The position numbers were made by a program, and so were the translations under genes. Below are positions 16,046 to 58,963 of a DNA stretch of 64,000 nucleotides, piece after piece (the stretch's first letter is position 1; each line of letters opens with the position of its first letter). Below the pieces are notes generated by a model. It saw only the letters and a list, made by a program, of their open reading frames with translations, ran no database searches and was not told the origin of the DNA. Origin of the DNA: an uncultured bacterium (GTDB taxonomy: Bacteria > Krumholzibacteriota > Krumholzibacteriia > JACNKJ01); assembly GCA_963695095.1 (NCBI GenBank), contig CAVOFT010000001.1, forward strand, positions 1,184,001 to 1,248,000. Direction: 5' to 3'.

Positions 16046-16213
16046 GCGGCGGCGGCCGGCGCGGGACTGCCCTCGCCGGGAGGGGTAGGGCGGCTTACCA
16101 TCGTGTTTGTTCGGGGCTGGTCAAAGCCCTCGGGTGGGGCTAGAGTTGTGGCATTCGATAACCACGGCGAGATGTCCCGCTGCGGACGCTCCCTCTCAGC
16201 GAAAGGACGGAAC

Positions 16214-16786
16214 ATGACTACAATGCGCTACCGCCTGCTGCTGGCCGCGGTCGCCCTGCTGGCCTTGCTGCCAGTCGGCGCCTTCGCCCAGGACAAGGTG
16301 CTCGAACTGGACACGCTGCCCGGCCGGGAGCCGATTCCGCCCGACTGTTCGGGCTGGCACGAGCTGTGGCCGAACTTCTGCGCCCCCGCTCACCAGGACA
16401 GCGTCGAGGACAATGGAGACGGTGAGCTCACCGCCTGCGACTTCATCTACCTGGACGGCGTGCGTTACCACATCGACTGGATCGGCCCCACCTACTGGCT
16501 GGACTGCGAGCTGATTCTCGAGCCCACCGATTACCAGCCAGGCGATCCGGTCTGCCAGACCTGGATCGAGATCTGGCCCGACTATGGCCAGCTCTGGCAT
16601 GTCGACGCCTGGGAGGACAACGGCAACGGTGTCGTGGATGCCTGCGATATCATCACCGTCACCGGCCCCGGCGGCACCTTGGCCTGTCACGTGAACGAGG
16701 TGGCGACGAACATTCGCGTCACCGGCGATCCGACGCCCGTCGAGGAAGGCACCTGGAGCCGCATCAAGAGCTTCTTCGGCTTCTAG
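16214..16786 (+). CDS. Secreted Cys/Asp-rich protein with two internal repeats and a short C-terminal TWxxIK motif
   Basis: Signal peptide; CSGWHELWPNF...EDNGDGELTACDFI and CQTWIEIWPDY...EDNGNGVVDACDII; ends TPVEEGTWSRIKSFFGF. Confidence 0.8.
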   Translation: MTTMRYRLLLAAVALLALLPVGAFAQDKVLELDTLPGREPIPPDCSGWHELWPNFCAPAHQDSVEDNGDGELTACDFIYLDGVRYHIDWIGPTYWLDCELILEPTDYQPGDPVCQTWIEIWPDYGQLWHVDAWEDNGNGVVDACDIITVTGPGGTLACHVNEVATNIRVTGDPTPVEEGTWSRIKSFFGF

Positions 16787-49522: not shown

Positions 49523-51205
49523 ATGGCCGAGAAGTTCATCTTTCACATGTACGGCGTCAGCATGGCCTATGGGCCCAAGCAGGTGCTGAAGGAGATCAAC
49601 CTCAGCTTCTTCCCGGGCGCGAAGATCGGCATCGTCGGCGAGAACGGCTCGGGCAAGAGCACCGTGCTGCGCATCATGGCGGGCCTGGAGCCGAACTTCC
49701 AGGGCCACGCCGAGCTCACGCCCGGCTTTCGCGCCGGCATGGTGGCCCAGGAGCCCGAGCTCGACGACGCGCTCACCGTGCGCGCGACCATCGAGTCCGC
49801 CTTCGGGGCGATCAAGGCGCTGATGGCCGAGTACGACGCCGTTGCCGCCAGCATGGGCGAGGATCTCGACGAGGCCGCGATGGCCAAGGCCATGGACCGC
49901 ATGAGTGCCCTGCAAGACCGCATCGAGGCCGCTGACGGCTGGAACCTGGATCAGAAGCTGGATGTCGCCAGCGACGCCCTCTGCCTGCCCGAGGACGAGC
50001 GGCTGGTGGGCACCCTCTCGGGCGGCGAACGGCGGCGCGTGGCCCTCTGCAAGATCTTGCTCGAGCAGCCTGACTTGCTGCTGCTCGACGAGCCCACCAA
50101 TCACCTCGACGCCGAGACCGTGAACTGGCTCGAGGAGCAGCTGCGCGTCTATCCCGGCACGGTGATCGTGGTCACGCACGACCGCTACTTCCTCGACAAC
50201 GTCACCGGCTGGATCCTCGAACTGGAGGGCGGCCGCGGCATCCCCTGGCAGGGCAATTACAGCTCCTGGCTGGAGCAGAAGCTGGCCAAGCTGGCCGAAG
50301 GCGAGCGGGGGGACTCCGCGCGCGGCCGCGCCCTGCGGCGGGAGCTGGACTGGATCCGCATGAGCCGCGGCGACCGCCGGGCGCTGGCCCAGGCGCGCCT
50401 GCGCGAGTACGAGCAGCTCGTCGCCCGCGAGCGGTCCGAGCAGCGGGGCGAGGCCGAGGCGGCCATCCGCATCGCGCCGGGGCCGGAGCTGGGCGCGCAG
50501 GTGGTGGAGTTCAAGGACGTGGCCTTCGGCTACGCGGGGCGCACACTCTTCGAGCAGCTCAGCTTCAGCGTGCCGCGCGGGGCGGTGATCGGCCTGGTCG
50601 GTCCCAACGGCGCGGGCAAGACGAGCCTGTTCAAGCTGATCGCCGGCGGGCTGAAGCCGCAGGCGGGCAGCGTGAGCGTGGGCGCCTCGGTGAAACTGGT
50701 CCACGGCGACCAGGAGCGCAGCGGTCTCGACGCGAACCGCACGCTCATCGAGGACGTGGGGGGCGGCGAGGAGGAGATCGCGATCGGCAGCGAGAAGATC
50801 CCGATTCGCAAGTACCTGGCCCAGTTCGGCTTCAAGGGGGCCTCGCAGCAGAAGCGGACGGGCGAGTTCTCCGGCGGCGAGCGCAACCGCTGCCACCTGG
50901 CCAAGCTGCTCAAGGCGGGCGGGAACCTGATCCTGCTCGACGAGCCGACCAACGACCTCGATGTGAACACTCTACGCCTGCTCGAGGAGGCCATCCTCGA
51001 GTTCTCCGGCTGCGTGCTGGCGATCAGCCACGATCGCTTCTTCCTCGATCGCATCTGCACGCACACGCTCGTCTTCGAGGGCGAGGGCAAGGTGCGCTTC
51101 TACGAGGGCAACTTCTCGGCCTACGAGGAGTGGCGGCAGCGCGAACTGGGCGACCGGCTCTTCGCGAATCGCCGCAACCGCTATCGGACGCTGGTGAAGG
51201 GCTAG
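49523..51205 (+). CDS. ettA: Energy-dependent translational throttle ABC-F protein EttA
   Basis: INLSFFPGAKIGIVGENGSGKST, LSGGERRRVAL, GRGIPWQGNYSSWLEQK, SGGERNR; no TM domains. Confidence 0.9.
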   Translation: MAEKFIFHMYGVSMAYGPKQVLKEINLSFFPGAKIGIVGENGSGKSTVLRIMAGLEPNFQGHAELTPGFRAGMVAQEPELDDALTVRATIESAFGAIKALMAEYDAVAASMGEDLDEAAMAKAMDRMSALQDRIEAADGWNLDQKLDVASDALCLPEDERLVGTLSGGERRRVALCKILLEQPDLLLLDEPTNHLDAETVNWLEEQLRVYPGTVIVVTHDRYFLDNVTGWILELEGGRGIPWQGNYSSWLEQKLAKLAEGERGDSARGRALRRELDWIRMSRGDRRALAQARLREYEQLVARERSEQRGEAEAAIRIAPGPELGAQVVEFKDVAFGYAGRTLFEQLSFSVPRGAVIGLVGPNGAGKTSLFKLIAGGLKPQAGSVSVGASVKLVHGDQERSGLDANRTLIEDVGGGEEEIAIGSEKIPIRKYLAQFGFKGASQQKRTGEFSGGERNRCHLAKLLKAGGNLILLDEPTNDLDVNTLRLLEEAILEFSGCVLAISHDRFFLDRICTHTLVFEGEGKVRFYEGNFSAYEEWRQRELGDRLFANRRNRYRTLVKG

Positions 51206-51231
51206 AAGACGGCGATGGCGCTGCCGGTCCC

Positions 51232-51828
51232 TCAGCGATAGAGCGCCTTCACGGAGCCTAGATGCGCTTGCCGAACGGGTGTGGCGGGATTGAGGCAGAG
51301 GCGGTCGGCCAGATTGAAGAGCCCGTCCAAGATCTCGACGCGCGCGATGTAGTCGCCGGCGTCCAGTTGGAGCGGGCCGCTCCCGGCGGCCCAGACGAGG
51401 GGATCGGGTCAGCCCAGACCGGCGCCGTAGTAGCTGATCTCGCGGCTCTGCGCCGCGCCGCCGGCCGCGGGGCGGAGGCTGAGTTCGAGCACGTTGAGCA
51501 TGCCGAACTGGCTCTTGAAGCTGGCCGAGACCTCGTAGCTGCCCGGCTCGGGCAGCGCGATGAGGATCTCGATCCACTCGCCGAGCTGATCGAAGCCCGC
51601 GACGGCGTAGCCGCCCCCGGCGTTGTTGCACTCCGCGTAGGGATTGATGTCCGCCCCGCCGAGGTCCAGGAAGTCGTAGAGCGGCGGTCCCCACTCGAAG
51701 TAAAGCGGCAGGACCTCATCGGCCGCCGCGCCTGCGGCGCAGCATAGCAGCGCCGACACCAGCAGTACGTGGCCGAGCGCCCCGACCCGGCTCCATCCGC
51801 TCGGCAGCATTCCAGTTCGCAGTAACAT
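51232..51828 (-). CDS. Secreted CBM6/CBM35-like protein with C-terminal xxGSVKALYR tail; in-frame TGA at 51409-51411; candidate selenoprotein (198 aa)
   Basis: Signal peptide...GEWIEILIALPEPGSYEV...ISYYGAGLG*PDPLVWAAGSGPLQLDAGDYIARVEILDGLFNLADRLCLNPATPVRQAHLGSVKALYR*. Confidence 0.72.
51374..51411 (-). promoter_or_regulatory. Candidate bacterial SECIS element
   Basis: UGA + 16 nt, then perfect stem GGGCCGC, loop CGGGA, GCGGCCC; loop 23 nt from the UGA with G at loop position 2. Confidence 0.55.
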
Positions 51829-51968
51829 TTCCCACCTTCCCCCTCGACCGCGCCTTGATGCAGCCTAGCTGCGGCCCGGGGTGCGTACCCCCGAGCCGAC
51901 TGCTTCGCAGCGACGGATCTCTCCTGCGCCATGCTCTCCCTGCTGACACCGAGCGGCGGCGTTGGGAG

Positions 51969-53378
51969 CTACTTCAGCAGGAGGGCCTTCTGTGTGCGCA
52001 CGGTCCCCTCCGCTTCCAGCCGGATGACGTAGAGTCCGCTGGTTAAGGGCTGCCCTTGCGCATCCCTCGCCTCCCAGTCCAGGCGCCGCTCGCCCGCGGG
52101 CAGGCGCGCGTCCAGGACCTCGGCGACCCGCCGCCCAGCAGCGTCGTATGCCGTCACGCGGACGCGCTGCTCCTGCGCCAGGCTGAAGCGGATCTCCGCT
52201 CTTGGGTTGAAGGGATTCGGGTGAATACTCAGGTCGCCGCTCCTGGCCGGCGGGGCATCGACGCCGGTCATCAGGTTGCCGCGGCCCAGCCAAATCTCAC
52301 CGGTCGGCTCGGGATCGCCCAGCTCGAAGATCAGGGCGACGGCGCCCTCAAGGCCCAGGGCGAGGTCGTTGTGCCTGCAGATCCTCCCACCGAGAAGATC
52401 CGAGCGATCCTCCCACGCCCCACCCGGCGGTTTGACCTTGTAGTAGCTGGCATAGCTCGTCTGCGCGGCGTAGTCGAACTGCTGGAACCAGAAAGCGTGG
52501 GCGGCGCCATCCGCATCCACGGCCAGCGCCGGCCAGCGCGGCCAGTCGTCGCCGAGCCCGTTCACGGTGAGCTCCTCCGGCTCCGTCCACTGGCCCTCAC
52601 CGAGTTCCCGGCAATAGTAGAGGTGGTTGCAGAGGCAGAGGGGCTGCGGCTTCATGCCGATGAGATGGTGACCACTGGGGCCAATGGCCGTGTCGAAGTA
52701 ACCGCCGAAGTAGCCGCCCTCGGGCCAGACGGAATAGGGGATGCCATAGAGGTCGAAGTAGCCGATGCACTCCTCGACGGGATTCGCCAGGTACAGGCGG
52801 GGGAAGCACACGTCCAGCCAGCAAGCCATCTGGGCCTGGGGGTAGAGGCGCATGGCGTCCTCACCCTCCGTGCAGAACTGCCAGCCGCCGGAGAAGTCTC
52901 CACCCCAGCCTTCATAGAGGAGGGCGCAGAGATCGTCCATCTCCACCGCGAGCGCGTTCTCCGAGCCCTGCCAACCCGGCTGCCAGCTTGCCACCGCCAA
53001 GCCTCGAACGGGCCGATCCCCGGGATCATCGCGGATCTCGACAAGCTCGCCCCATTCGCCGCCGGCCAGCTCGCGCGTGAGGACCCTGTCGCCCTCCGCC
53101 CAGACCAGGCTGAAGCCCCAAGTGGTCCAGCAGACGCCCGGATCGATACCTGGCCCGTGGAAGATGGGAGCTTGCAGCGTGCCAGCGACCAGGCGACGGG
53201 TCCAGATTCCCACGCCCTCCTCCTCCCAGGCGGCCAGGATGTCGCCTGAGGAGCTCATGGTCACGGCGCAGTTCGAGTAGTCTCCCGGAACGGGGCTGAG
53301 CACGGCGAAATCGAGGGTCTGGGCGGTCGCGGTCGCAGCCAAGGCTGTCAGGCAGAGCACAGTGGTCAGCAGGCGCAT
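51969..53378 (-). CDS. Secreted beta-rich (probable propeller) protein with FlgD-Ig tail
   Basis: MRLLTTVLCLTALAATATAQ signal, PALAVDADGAAHAFW, PNPFNP...TSGLYVIRL. Confidence 0.8.
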   Translation of the reverse strand: MRLLTTVLCLTALAATATAQTLDFAVLSPVPGDYSNCAVTMSSSGDILAAWEEEGVGIWTRRLVAGTLQAPIFHGPGIDPGVCWTTWGFSLVWAEGDRVLTRELAGGEWGELVEIRDDPGDRPVRGLAVASWQPGWQGSENALAVEMDDLCALLYEGWGGDFSGGWQFCTEGEDAMRLYPQAQMACWLDVCFPRLYLANPVEECIGYFDLYGIPYSVWPEGGYFGGYFDTAIGPSGHHLIGMKPQPLCLCNHLYYCRELGEGQWTEPEELTVNGLGDDWPRWPALAVDADGAAHAFWFQQFDYAAQTSYASYYKVKPPGGAWEDRSDLLGGRICRHNDLALGLEGAVALIFELGDPEPTGEIWLGRGNLMTGVDAPPARSGDLSIHPNPFNPRAEIRFSLAQEQRVRVTAYDAAGRRVAEVLDARLPAGERRLDWEARDAQGQPLTSGLYVIRLEAEGTVRTQKALLLK

Positions 53379-53487
53379 CGGCACTACCCCCCTCACGTTC
53401 GTCGCCGTTCGGTGCACGCTCCAGCCCCATTATATCTGCGAATGCGCCCAGAGTCACGTCCCCTAGCGGCCCCGGCGGGCACACACG

Positions 53488-53648: not shown

Positions 53649-53787
53649 GCCGCGATCACCTTGATCTTTTTCGAGTTACGACGCCTGCCGCCCTCGCGAT
53701 TCCAGCCGGCGCCCTGGGCGCGGCCGGCCTCGCCTGCTATAGTCGGCCTTGGCGGCCGGCGCGGCCGGCCACTGCGCGAGGAGTCCA

Positions 53788-56187
53788 ATGGCCGAGGCAC
53801 GCGATCCAGCTTCCCCCGCCGGCGGCGCTGGCCGCGCGCGCCTGCGCCTGGACTTCCGCGGGCGCGTGCAGGGCGTGGGCTTTCGGCCCTGGATCTATCG
53901 CCTGGCCACGGAGGAGGGCCTGGCCGGCCACGTGGGCAACGACCTGCGCGGCGCCTTCGTCGAAGTCGAGGGCGCCCCGGTGGCCATCGCCCGCTTTCTT
54001 GCGCGCGTCGAAACCGAAGCGCCGGCCCTGGTGGCCATCGTCGCGCGCGAGGAGCAGGCGCTCGCGCCCCTCGGCGAGCGCGAGTTCCGCATCCTCTCGA
54101 GCCGCAGCGGCGGCGAGCAGCGCGCGGAGATCGCGCCCGATGCCGCCACCTGCCCCGACTGCCTGCGCGAACTCTTCGATCCCGCGGATCGCCGCTACCG
54201 CTACCCCTTCATCAACTGCACGAACTGCGGGCCGCGCTACTCGATCGTGAAGTCCCTGCCCTACGACCGGCCGCGCACCACGATGGCCGCCTTCACGATG
54301 TGCCCGCGCTGCCAGGCCGAGTACGATGACCCCGCCGACCGCCGCTTCCACGCCCAGCCCAACGCCTGCGGCGACTGTGGCCCGCGCGTGGAACTCACCG
54401 ACGCCGTGGGCCGCGCGCGCGCGGGCGAGCCCATCGCCGAGAGCGTCCGCCGCCTCCTGGCCGGCGAAATCCTCGCCATCAAGGGGCTCGGCGGCTTTCA
54501 CCTCGCCTGTCGCGCGGATCGCGAAGATGTGGTCGCCCGCCTGCGCGCGCGCAAGGGCCGCGAGGCCAAGCCCCTCGCGCTCATGGTGGCCGAGCTGGCT
54601 GCTGCCCACGCGCTGGTGCAGCTCGACCCGCCCAGCGAGGCCCTGCTCGCGAGCGTCGCGCGGCCCATCGTGCTGGCGCCCGCGCATGCGGGCATCCCGA
54701 TCGCGCCCGCCGTGGCGCCCGGCAGCCACACGCTGGGCATCATGCTGCCCTACACGCCCCTGCACCACCTGCTCTTCGCCACGGCCGCCGCGGGCGAGCA
54801 GCTCGGCCCCCTGGTCATGACCTCGGGCAACCCCAGCGCGGAGCCCCTCTGCGCGGACAACGCCGAAGCCCTCGCGCGGCTCGGCTCCATCGCCGACGCC
54901 TTCCTCCTCCACGATCGCGACATCGAGCGCCGCGTGGACGACTCGGTGGCCCTCGCCCTGCGCCTTGCCGCCCCCGGGGGCGAGGCCGCGCGCACCCTGC
55001 CGCTGCGCCGCGCGCGCGGCTTCGCGCCGGCGCCGATCATCCTGAGCGAGGCGGTCGCCACGACGGTCCTCGCCCTCGGCGGCGAGCTGAAGAGCACCGT
55101 CTGCTATCTCGCCGGCGATCAGGCTCTGCTCAGCGAGCACCTGGGCGACCTGGACAACCCGGCCGCCTACCGCGCCTTCCTCGGCACCATCGAGCGCCTG
55201 GGCGAACTGGTGGGCGTGGAGCCCGCGCTCATCGCCTGCGACCTGCACCCCGACTACGCCGCCAGCCGCCACGCGCGCGGCCTCTCCCTGCCGCGCGTCG
55301 AGGTGCAGCACCACCACGCGCACATCGTCAGCTGCATGGCCGACAACGGCCTGCCGCTGGACGCCGAGGTGCTGGGCCTGGCCTGCGACGGCACGGGCTA
55401 CGGAGACGACGGCAGCATCTGGGGCTGCGAGCTGCTGCAGTGCAGCGCAGCGCGCTACGCGCGCCTGGGGTCCCTGCGCCCCTTCGTGCTGCTGGGCGGC
55501 GACGCCGCGGCCCGCGAGACCTGGCGGCCCGCGGCGGGCCTGCTCGCCGAGACCTACGGGCCCGACTGGCCCGCGGCCGCACCTGGCGCCGCGGCGCGCA
55601 TCCGGCCCGAGGCGCTGGCGCTCGCCCGCCGCTTCCTGGCCGCGCCCGCGCCGCCCGGACCGCGCACGAGCAGCCTGGGTCGGCTCTTCGACGCCGTGGC
55701 CTTCCTGCTTGGCCTCTGCGACTACAACCAGGCCGAGGCCCAGGCGGCGATGGCCCTGGAGGCGGCCGCTGCCCGCCACGGCGCCGCCGCGCCGCTGCCC
55801 TTGCCGGTGATCCCCGAGGGCGGCCTGCTGCTGCTCGACCCGCGGCCGCTCATCGCGGCCCTCGTGGGGGGCCGGGACGCCGGCCGCCCGGCGGGCGAAC
55901 TCGCCGCCGCTTTCCACGCCGGGCTGGCCCAGGGCCTGGCGGCCCTCGCGGCCGCTGCTGCCGCCCAGGGAGCGCCTCGCCGCCTGCTGCTCTCCGGGGG
56001 CTGCTTCGCCAATCGCATTCTCACGGAAGGGCTTGCGGGCCTGTTGCAGGATCATGACCTTGATGTCAGTATTCACCAGCGCGTGCCCACCGGCGACGGG
56101 GGCCTGGCCCTGGGCCAGGCCCTCATCGCCGCCGCGCAGGCCGAACGCGGCCAGCTGCCTCCCACCGGCGCGCACAGCGAGGAGTGA
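53788..56187 (+). CDS. hypF: Hydrogenase maturation carbamoyltransferase HypF
   Basis: GRVQGVGFRP, CPDC...CTNCGPR, CPRC...RRFHAQPNAC, HHHAH, DGTGYG, GDGGLALGQ. Confidence 0.96.
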   Translation: MAEARDPASPAGGAGRARLRLDFRGRVQGVGFRPWIYRLATEEGLAGHVGNDLRGAFVEVEGAPVAIARFLARVETEAPALVAIVAREEQALAPLGEREFRILSSRSGGEQRAEIAPDAATCPDCLRELFDPADRRYRYPFINCTNCGPRYSIVKSLPYDRPRTTMAAFTMCPRCQAEYDDPADRRFHAQPNACGDCGPRVELTDAVGRARAGEPIAESVRRLLAGEILAIKGLGGFHLACRADREDVVARLRARKGREAKPLALMVAELAAAHALVQLDPPSEALLASVARPIVLAPAHAGIPIAPAVAPGSHTLGIMLPYTPLHHLLFATAAAGEQLGPLVMTSGNPSAEPLCADNAEALARLGSIADAFLLHDRDIERRVDDSVALALRLAAPGGEAARTLPLRRARGFAPAPIILSEAVATTVLALGGELKSTVCYLAGDQALLSEHLGDLDNPAAYRAFLGTIERLGELVGVEPALIACDLHPDYAASRHARGLSLPRVEVQHHHAHIVSCMADNGLPLDAEVLGLACDGTGYGDDGSIWGCELLQCSAARYARLGSLRPFVLLGGDAAARETWRPAAGLLAETYGPDWPAAAPGAAARIRPEALALARRFLAAPAPPGPRTSSLGRLFDAVAFLLGLCDYNQAEAQAAMALEAAAARHGAAAPLPLPVIPEGGLLLLDPRPLIAALVGGRDAGRPAGELAAAFHAGLAQGLAALAAAAAAQGAPRRLLLSGGCFANRILTEGLAGLLQDHDLDVSIHQRVPTGDGGLALGQALIAAAQAERGQLPPTGAHSEE

Positions 56188-57564: not shown

Positions 57565-58582
57565 ATGCGCGAGTCCGAACAGATCCTGATGGCCCACGGC
57601 GGCGGCGGCGAGTTGACGCAGCGCCTCGTCGCCGAGCACATCCTGCCGCGCCTGGGCAACCCCCTGCTGGCGCCGCTGGCCGACGGCGCCCTGCTCGCGC
57701 CCGTGGCCGGCAGGCTCTGCCTGACGACGGACTCCTTCGTCGTGCAGCCGCTCGAATTCCCGGGCGGCGACATCGGCCGGCTCGCCGTCTGCGGCACCGT
57801 CAACGACCTGGCGATGATGGGCGCGCGACCGCTGGCCCTCAGCCTCGGCCTCATTCTCGAGGAGGGGCTCGCCCTGGCCACCCTCGACCGCGTGCTGGAC
57901 TCCATCGCCGTCGCGGCGGCCGCGGCCGGCGTGCCCGTGGCGACGGGCGACACCAAGGTCATCGAGCGGCGGGGCGCGGGCGGGCTGCTCATCAATACCA
58001 CCGGCCTCGGCGAGCTGCGCGCCGGCGCCCTGCTCGGCGCCGAGCGCGTGGAGGCGGGCGACTTGCTGCTCGTCAGCGGCGGCATCGCCGAGCACGGCCT
58101 GGCCGTGCTCTCCATGCGCCAGCACCTGGAGTTCGCCACCGATCTCGTCAGCGACGTCGCCGCGCTGGACACGCTGGCCGCCGCTCTCATCGCGGCCTGC
58201 GGCGAGGCGCTCAAGTTCATGCGGGATCCGACGCGCGGCGGCCTGGCGGGCCTGGTCTGCGACCTCGCAGCGGCGGCGGGGCTCGGCGTGGAAGTGGACG
58301 AGGCGGCGGTGCCGATCCTGCCGGCCGCCCTGGCCACGGCGGAGTTGCTGGGGCTCGATCCCCTGGGCATCGCCAACGAAGGCAAGCTGGTGGCCGTGGT
58401 GGCCGCCGGCGGCGGCGCCGCGCGCCCTCGCCGCGCTGCGCGCGCACCCGCTGGGCGCGCGCGCAGCGCTCGTCGGCCGCTGCCTGCGCGCCGCGCCGCC
58501 CCTGGCGGAGCTGATCACGCGGGGCGGTGGCCGCCGGCTCATCGCCCGGCCCTACGGCGAAGATCTGCCGCGCATCTGCTGA
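57565..58582 (+). CDS. hypE: Hydrogenase maturation protein HypE; one frameshift near 58405-58420
   Basis: AHGGGG, TTDSFVV, GTVNDL, GDTKV, RDPTRGG, ANEGKL; shifted frame gives ALAALRAHPLG...GEDLPRIC*. Confidence 0.92.
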
Positions 58583-58591
58583 AGGAGCGCC

Positions 58592-58963
58592 GTGCACGAG
58601 CTGAGTATCGCCCTCGCCCTGCTCGAGCAACTCGAGGCGCTGGCCGCCGAGCGCGATATCGAGTGCTTCGAGAGCATCGAGCTGAGGGCCGGCGCCAGGC
58701 GGGGCATCGTACCCGAAGCGCTGGAGCTGGCCTTCCGTGAGGCGGCTCGGGGCGGCGTGGCGGCCCAGGCGCGGCTGGAGTTGACGATCGTGCCCACGCA
58801 GGCGCGCTGCCGGGGCTGCGGCCACGAGTTCGCGCCTGCAGTCGCCGACTACCTCTGCGCCCGCTGCGGTCAGGCCGATGTGGAAATTCTCAGCGGCGAC
58901 GATATCGTGCTCAGTCGCGTGACCTGCGCCCTCGCCGGCGCGGATGAGGAGGACCCCTCGTGA
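58592..58963 (+). CDS. hypA: Hydrogenase nickel chaperone HypA
   Basis: (M)HELSIA, CRGC, CARC. Confidence 0.95.
   Translation: MHELSIALALLEQLEALAAERDIECFESIELRAGARRGIVPEALELAFREAARGGVAAQARLELTIVPTQARCRGCGHEFAPAVADYLCARCGQADVEILSGDDIVLSRVTCALAGADEEDPS

Follow-up and report, generated by a model that had tools for sequence, protein, structure and literature searches.

Does the UGA codon that closes the called form of a small exported-protein gene in an uncultured bacterium of the phylum Krumholzibacteriota end translation, or is it read as selenocysteine (Sec)? The question arises in a 64,000-nucleotide (nt) stretch of DNA (contig CAVOFT010000001.1, positions 1,184,001 to 1,248,000 of the forward strand; hereafter the window), in which a minus-strand open reading frame of 139 amino acids (51828..51412, ending in YYGAGLG) stops at a TGA at 51411..51409. 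An earlier note, made from the letters of the window alone, had claimed that the frame remains open beyond this codon and had proposed Sec in a protein with a carbohydrate-binding-like fold. The same frame does continue for 58 further codons up to a second TGA at 51234..51232, reproducing exactly the peptide that the note had quoted, and comparison with homologous genes indicates that this is almost certainly a genuine selenoprotein gene in which UGA codon 140 is read as Sec. The proposal draws its support from a TGA column conserved across the family, Cys-containing homologues, a covarying hairpin, the selenocysteine machinery of the genome and a structural model. The complete selenoprotein gene (51232..51828, minus strand) would comprise 198 codons, with the UGA as codon 140 (51409..51411, minus strand; Sec104 of the mature protein, in a G-x-G-x-G-U loop between two strands) and the TGA at 51234..51232 as terminal stop, an extent we assign on the basis of phylum homologues that match the gene through the TGA up to residue 197-198.

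An in-frame UGA conserved across a family of exported proteins

Apart from the window's own protein, a word-indexed search returned five homologues (60-79% identity), all called at 133-139 amino acids and all ending at the same column as the window call. Searching 208 phylum genomes in six frames gave 67 matches in 54 genomes, of which 46 contain an in-frame TGA (45 with one and 1 with two, counted from the match table); these TGA-bearing matches are spread over 39 genomes and seven of nine family codes, and the majority of the phylum alignments extend to residue 197-198 of 199. When the loci were translated with TGA as U and the 53 distinct segments were aligned, a single column took the TGA, with 47 U, four Cys, one Ala and one gap, and removal of one partial duplicate left 46 distinct Sec genes. 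The segment with Ala, a 412-amino acid frame (L042), was considered as a family member and rejected, its match consisting mostly of the shared C-terminal tail described below. A TGA column common to 46 distinct genes in 39 genomes excludes chance by a wide margin. Downstream of this column the proteins remain alignable through a W..AGSG motif, three strand-like blocks, an invariant-like Asp and the common C-terminal tail.

The same pattern extends to public protein collections, where a profile of 50 family members searched against 1.84 billion representatives matched 1168 proteins at an expectation value (E) of at most 0.001 and 310 at E <= 1e-10. Among the best 150 of the 1168, 111 are short calls ending at the Sec column, and 106 of these 111 have G.G.x(1-4) as their C-terminal end; the earlier note had proposed to look for annotated proteins that end at G.G.G followed by TGA. 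A further 15 of the best 150 are full length, and the remainder are 13 long multidomain proteins, which look like generic CBM6-like domains, and 11 others. The residue that replaces Sec is Cys and not Trp, both in all four of the phylum loci that lack it and in all 15 full-length representatives; one Cys form of the family lies in the window's own genome (G000:C1:2605726-2606274).

Two metagenome relatives for which DNA was available, L072 (64% identity) and L073 (42%), both carry the TGA. In L072, the closest DNA relative, the stretch of 58 codons beyond the TGA shows 69% identity and a ratio of nonsynonymous to synonymous substitution rates (dN/dS) of 0.36 as against 0.42 for the mature part before it (a single pair), which argues that the downstream frame is conserved as protein. 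A search of genome contigs found no relative with P0001 as query and matched one locus with the L021 protein as query.

Tandem pairs of family genes are frequent (L019, L026, L018 and L030); in L030 a Sec form adjoins a Cys form, and in L018 a CGU form adjoins a Cys-free Sec form. One family gene (L029, G080:C20, 1528-2016, minus strand) has a second in-frame TGA at the position of the tail Trp (SS-U-GLIKAIYKN), which might be explained by a TGG-to-TGA lesion or error, by an early stop or by a second Sec.

A covarying hairpin downstream of the UGA

The perfect 7-base pair (bp) hairpin that the earlier note had placed 17 nt after the UGA is present as GGGCCGC-CGGGA-GCGGCCC at nt 17-35 after the UGA (window 51392..51374), and reaches 8 bp when a U.G pair is counted (51393..51373). 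We annotate it as the bacterial selenocysteine insertion sequence (SECIS) of the gene, a stem-loop UGGGCCGC-CGGGA-GCGGCCCG (51373..51393, minus strand) that overlaps the codons for W-A-A-G-S-G-P and has G at loop position 2. The published bacterial SECIS (bSECIS) model calls for a loop of 3-9 nt with a G among its first two positions, 4 bp or more in the stem, a UGA-to-loop distance of 16-37 nt and an energy of at most -7.5 kcal/mol (PMC13188914, section 5), and the window hairpin satisfies this model with 8 bp, the loop CGGGA, an apical loop 23 nt after the UGA and -15.3 kcal/mol. With perfect stems only scored, the four published bSECIS criteria hold together for 33 of the 46 Sec forms and for none of the four Cys forms.

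The comparative evidence comes from an alignment of positions UGA-3 to +51 of 45 distinct Sec genes, in which two loop G are invariant. The 7-bp helix is paired in 77.5% of alignment cells compared with 62.4% in shuffled alignments (0 of 500 as high), cells changed on both sides number 60 compared with 23.4, and the covariation score of 0.486 stands against 0.216 in shuffles (0 of 500 as high) and 0.11-0.17 in six slid controls; at one pair of the helix, 27 sequences have GC and 12 have AU. Covariation, which the earlier note had named as a test of its hairpin, is thereby borne out. The helix is encoded by A/T-G-S-G codons, and 32 of 46 Sec forms, compared with 1 of 19 Cys forms, have the motif [AT]GS[GSD] downstream of the column; judged from these sequences, the motif is the trace that an RNA constraint on the coding sequence would be expected to leave. 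The Sec forms of one genus (L023, L025, L028 and L030; genus code g5) carry a different hairpin instead of the CGGGA-loop element, CCUCCGC-GUG/GUU-GCGGGGG, which begins 10-11 nt past the UGA, so that the SECIS has been replaced within the family. A permissive Rfam scan of 51150-51900 returned no SECIS family and four weak, unrelated matches.

Selenocysteine machinery and the genetic code

The genome that contains the window encodes the components that decoding of UGA as Sec would require. A tRNA-Sec (71.9 bits) with the anticodon tca (ARAGORN), selB (336.8 bits), selA (429.8 bits) and selD (342.4 bits) are all present, all above curated cut-offs, and so the presence of the machinery, on which the earlier note had made its proposal depend, has been confirmed. 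Among the 208 phylum genomes, selA occurs in 200 and in all 125 of good quality, a distribution that is compatible with the selenoprotein reading and does not discriminate; the sole genome with a Sec form and no selA match (G194) is 75% complete, and the use of selenocysteine looks like a trait of the whole phylum. Of the 3313 stop-terminated frames of at least 400 amino acids, 1873 end in TGA. It is the commonest stop of the genome and, with so many long frames ending in it, not generally a sense codon here.

Together with the hairpin, these components suggest how the codon would be decoded. A ribosome reaching UGA codon 140 of this exported-protein gene would meet, 16 nt past the UGA, the stem-loop of 8 bp with the loop CGGGA, which would serve SelB with Sec-tRNA(Sec) as a bacterial SECIS; Sec would be inserted, and 58 more codons would then be translated to the real stop. 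As a separate observation, the selD gene of the genome (G000:C1:69142-70107, minus strand; L068) itself contains one in-frame TGA and is of the Sec type, so that SelD is also a selenoprotein.

Predicted fold of the read-through protein

The product is predicted to be a precursor of 198 amino acids with a signal peptide, from which a mature protein of about 162 amino acids would be released that consists of a single beta-sandwich of the type found in carbohydrate-binding modules of families 6 and 35 (CBM6/35) followed by a C-terminal tag. The predicted signal peptide (residues 1-36; 51721..51828, minus strand), read from the sequence and the alignment, has a hydrophobic core and a cleavage-type site between AAA and DE, and a comparable hydrophobic leader starts all homologues. 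A lipobox within it was considered and rejected, its two Cys not being conserved.

We modeled the mature read-through protein (162 amino acids) with AlphaFold2 (AF2), using the 50-member family alignment as input. The model is an all-beta single domain with strands on both sides of the Sec, a predicted local distance difference test score (pLDDT) of 92.1 and a predicted template modeling score (pTM) of 0.84. Sec104 lies in a coil (mature residues 102-108) flanked by strands 91-98 and 109-119, and the strands that follow it (109-119, 122-132 and 136-145) form a block with pLDDT 95-98; the tail contains a short helix (154-160) of low confidence. Among the 116 Foldseek matches at E <= 0.001, CBM35 and CBM6 modules rank first (3zm8, 2cdo/2cdp; 2w47 with TMq 0.68), and the top VIA-align match was the agarase CBM6 2cdo_A (Z 16.2, root-mean-square deviation 2.3 A over 132 residues, model residues 2..145), followed by CBM35, CBM36 and CBM6 entries. 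The CBM6/35-like fold that the earlier note had read from the sequence is therefore upheld by the confidence of the model, by the Foldseek matches and by the alignment to 2cdo_A. The note had further claimed that the residues after the TGA supply the second half of the sandwich; they do complete it, but what they supply is the last third, three strands spanning mature residues 109-145. These strands correspond to residues 141-181 (51286..51408, minus strand) and are missing from the 139-amino acid call.

At the level of sequence the relationship to known modules is faint. No Pfam family was found for the window protein, whole or in halves, up to E 10, and Pfam CBM_6 was reached by 1 of the 50 members (E 0.006). 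Profile matches to the Protein Data Bank had E values from 2.7e-6 to 0.005 and were confined to the GLDxxGEW region, so that the likeness to CBM6/35 profiles is a weak one over the G-L-D-x-x-G-E-W strand region, and the natural Cys paralogue matched in the ESM Atlas only hypothetical-protein clusters (0.91-0.92) and CBM6/35 clusters (0.83-0.84). In the predicted model, by comparison, the family shares the same beta-jelly-roll with CBM6, CBM35 and CBM36 modules over the whole domain (2cdo/2cdp, 2w47, 4qb1 and 1uxz). On this model the window protein has the CBM6/35 fold but lies, by the usual sequence criterion, outside the CBM6/35 family. Other members of the family begin with an xEAExY strand, which we take to be typical of CBM6/35; the window gene, judged from its sequence, is on a divergent branch that has LYFEWGPPLYDF instead of xEAExY and whose partner cysteine (see below) is distal. 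Unlike CBM modules, 46 of the 50 members, counted as those without a type IX secretion domain and including the window gene, are small, stand-alone exported proteins that are not appended to a glycoside hydrolase, and unlike CBM6/35 this family has a Sec or Cys residue in a loop.

Linear spacing offers a lead, and only a lead, to the position of that loop. A hidden Markov model alignment to CtGH5-CBM6 (2y8k/5la2) spans the first half only and places the C1 Cys 9 residues before the Trp of 'NVGW'. The aromatic residues of ligand cleft A in CtGH11-CBM6 are Tyr34 and Trp92 (PMC10284105), and in the window protein 58-61 residues separate F43 from G101-U104. By this linear spacing the Sec loop might lie at the place of the second cleft A aromatic of CBM6 modules.

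A C-terminal tag shared across the genome

The protein ends in the 16-residue tail TPVRQAHLGSVKALYR (51235..51282, minus strand), a variant of a tag that recurs through the genome and the phylum. In most family members the pattern T-x-x-V/A-E-x-x-S-[WF]-[GS]-x-[IV]-K-x-L-Y stands at the C-terminus, with 0-3 residues between it and the stop. In the window's genome (G000), 56 stop-to-stop frames of at least 60 amino acids close with [WFL][GSA]x[IVLM]Kxx[YF] and 0-3 further residues, usually in the form T-T-A-V-E-x-x-S-W-G-x-I-K-S-L-Y-stop; two of them look spurious by eye. The bodies that precede the tag differ among the 56 frames, several of them having Cys-rich 'SPC...C' modules, and many of the frames with a visible, plausible start open with a hydrophobic, leader-like sequence. 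The window frame at 16103..16783 (plus strand) is one of the 56 and ends in TPVEEGTWSRIKSFFGF, in keeping with the resemblance that the earlier note had seen between the tail of the selenoprotein and that of gene 16214. Nothing is conserved 3' of the stop in the 56 frames.

The tag is probably a sorting or attachment signal, an assignment we make because in 4 of 50 relatives exactly its place is taken by a type IX secretion C-terminal sorting domain. Compared with type IX cargo proteins (TIGR04183, PF18962 and PF13860), these four members have the domain where the others have the SWGxIKxLY tail, and the window protein has no such sorting domain whereas its upstream neighbor has one. No library model matched the 16-residue tail, and a literature search with the tail motif found nothing relevant. 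As a side observation, the stop codon is TAG in 40 of the 56 tag frames (71%), compared with about 38% among frames of at least 400 amino acids (1257 TAG, 1873 TGA and 183 TAA).

Partner cysteines and the role of the selenocysteine

What the Sec does is suggested mainly by the distribution of cysteines in the 50 members. A distal loop Cys after the third strand (in CSGG, or YAEC in the window protein) is found in 30 members, in none of which a Cys lies 4 or fewer residues from the Sec, and 18 members have a local Cys (C-G-U, CxxU, CxU or U-G-C, the last of these in three) and no distal loop Cys; no member has both, and two have neither. The window protein has no local Cys around its Sec (GAGLG-U-PDPLV), and family conservation points to Cys67 (mature Cys31, in YAEC; 51628..51630, minus strand), the distal 'C1-loop' cysteine, as its proposed partner, 73 residues away in sequence. 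Of the two partners that the earlier note had suggested, this upstream Cys is favored by its conservation in 30 of 50 members; the downstream Cys of RLCLN occupies its own column in 1 of 50, yet it recurs in the close metagenome relatives L072 and L073. In a family tree built without the partner-Cys and Sec columns, which is weakly resolved, the three local Cys registers fall in three separate clades and Sec-to-Cys forms arise at three or more places.

The Sec thus seems to need one nearby thiol, which is what a reactive selenol paired with a resolving cysteine would show, and a partner Cys that shifts among several positions is a known pattern for the resolving cysteines of redox enzymes. On these grounds the selenol may be the reactive centre of an extracytoplasmic redox protein with one partner Cys, a role to which we give an even chance. 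In such a protein the selenol would cycle through a selenylsulfide with a single partner cysteine, which would be the distal YAEC/CSGG-loop Cys in the window gene and 29 other members and a Cys 2-3 residues from the Sec (CxU, CxxU or UxC) in the 18 members without a distal loop Cys. More speculatively, and rather less probably than not, the family could be one of cell-surface selenoenzymes on a lectin scaffold, in which a Sec/Cys pair held in CBM6-type loops acts as a polymer-directed redox catalyst or as a chalcogen or metal trap and is delivered or anchored by an undescribed C-terminal tag (S-[WF]-[GS]-x-[IV]-K-x-L-Y-COOH), one that about 55 exported frames of the genome have in common and that is interchangeable with the type IX domain.

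Several observations weigh against these interpretations. At the RNA level, 13 of the 46 Sec forms miss the -7.5 kcal/mol criterion when perfect stems only are scored, and the 96 nt around the hairpin fold no more stably than shuffled sequence does (z -1.08), which leaves the case for the hairpin comparative and not energetic. At the protein level, the CBM6/35 fold is a binding fold and not a known redox fold, and the Sec members in L018 and L049 lack cysteine altogether, so that a selenylsulfide cannot be obligatory. The complementarity of distal and local Cys reflects few events, with a minimum of 2 (distal) and 4 (local) changes on the weakly resolved tree and only 1-2 independent pairs, too few for any statistic. 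Nor are the neighborhoods conserved: no partner recurs among 69 flanking frames of 31 loci, and an AhpC/redoxin-type gene is adjacent in only 2 of the 31. The recoding, as far as sequence comparison can carry it, is demonstrated; the redox mechanism of the Sec is something that we infer.

Three other explanations have to be set against these readings. That the TGA is merely an ordinary stop, a sequencing error, a pseudogene lesion or the product of a variant code, with the downstream frame untranslated, would agree with the 139-amino acid form annotated by gene callers and with the TGA that also serves as the final stop of the gene, but it is very hard to credit, given that the same TGA column occurs in distinct genes of 39 genomes, that the downstream frame is conserved at the protein level and needed for the fold, that homologues have Cys at the column and not Trp or Gly, that the hairpin covaries beside a complete Sec machinery, and that TGA is no general sense codon in a genome where it ends most long frames. 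A question that bears on chemistry instead of decoding is whether Sec and its partner Cys form a ligand and not a catalyst, the protein being a surface lectin-like module that captures a soft metal or chalcogen (Cu, Hg, As or an S/Se compound). This appears unlikely, although the fold is that of a binding module and not of an enzyme, and the two Cys-free members that keep their Sec fit a ligand better than a selenylsulfide cycle. The moving partner Cys, however, is the resolving-cysteine pattern described above, one Sec and one Cys make a thin coordination sphere, and no metal-handling genes recur beside the family in the 31 loci examined; on the other side, among the catalogued selenoproteins of bacteria there are several metal-binding ones that have CU, UxC or UxxU motifs (PMC13188914, Table 1).

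Still more doubtful is the possibility that the Sec forms only a structural selenylsulfide staple between two loops of an exported lectin that truly binds a carbohydrate or polymer. Sec comes at a cost and elsewhere almost always occupies reactive sites (PMC13188914, general statement), Sec forms outnumber Cys forms by 111 to 15 among the best 150 of 1168 representatives, and the Cys-free members retain their Sec. Structural cross-links are common in exported proteins, the full CBM6/35 fold is kept, and the Cys forms in the same genomes suggest that sulfur and selenium are interchangeable, all of which would suit a staple; but the near absence of Pfam matches (none for the window protein, and CBM_6 touched by a single member at E 0.006) and the stand-alone members without a glycoside hydrolase speak against it. 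We return, then, to a selenoprotein with the product and tag proposed here, an explanation that, taken as a whole, we consider very probable, with an even chance for its redox role.

Relation to known selenoproteins

Judged by Table 1 of a 2026 review (PMC13188914) and by NCBIfam release 20, which includes the selenoprotein models that the review cites, this is an uncatalogued selenoprotein family. None of the 119 families and subfamilies in that table has such a fold, motif or domain; none of the 50 members matches an NCBIfam selenoprotein model, four of them matching only through their secretion domain; and a literature search for a lectin-fold selenoprotein family found nothing relevant. 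The family has in common with catalogued bacterial selenoproteins that use a coding-region SECIS the same combination of UGA and bSECIS, Cys homologues and selA, selB, selD and tRNA-Sec. It differs in its scaffold, a lectin-type beta-sandwich, whereas most catalogued families are thioredoxin-like.

The closest parallels are the DsbA-, DsbG- and TlpA-like selenoproteins (UxxC/UGC) and the DUF1573 selenoprotein (PF07610, UGC) listed in Table 1 of PMC13188914, with which the family shares a signal peptide and, in 18 of 50 members, a Sec beside a Cys; in contrast to these it shows no sequence match to their models, and its fold is not that of thioredoxin. DUF1573 is a small secreted beta-sandwich domain. 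To our knowledge, almost all known bacterial selenoproteins are either thioredoxin-like or metal-centre enzymes.

Our findings suggest that a whole family of exported proteins in an uncultured phylum is systematically mis-called, public annotation truncating 111 or more sequence clusters (at 50% identity) to about 120 residues. A Sec in the fold of a stand-alone, secreted carbohydrate-binding module would widen the range of known Sec scaffolds and points to selenium-dependent chemistry outside the cytoplasm. The covarying hairpin and its AGSG peptide imprint provide a clean natural data set for the rules of bacterial SECIS elements, and proteins with the shared C-terminal tag may follow a sorting route that has not been described. 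What the window gene newly contributes is the complementarity of distal and local Cys and the peptide imprint of the SECIS.

Genomic context

Hydrogenase maturation genes lie just upstream in the window, HypF at 53749-56187 (plus strand) and a HypE-like (AIRS) gene at 57565-58740 (plus strand), with no evident link to the selenoprotein. An ABC-F ATPase gene faces the selenoprotein gene in convergent orientation, with 26 nt between its end and the selenoprotein stop. On its other side the selenoprotein gene lies 140 nt downstream of a same-strand gene (51969-53417, minus strand) for a 482-amino acid exported protein with an FlgD_ig-type (type IX-like) C-terminal domain. Genes with FlgD_ig domains adjoin family members in 4 of the 31 loci, and the gene at 51969-53417 may be co-transcribed with the selenoprotein gene.

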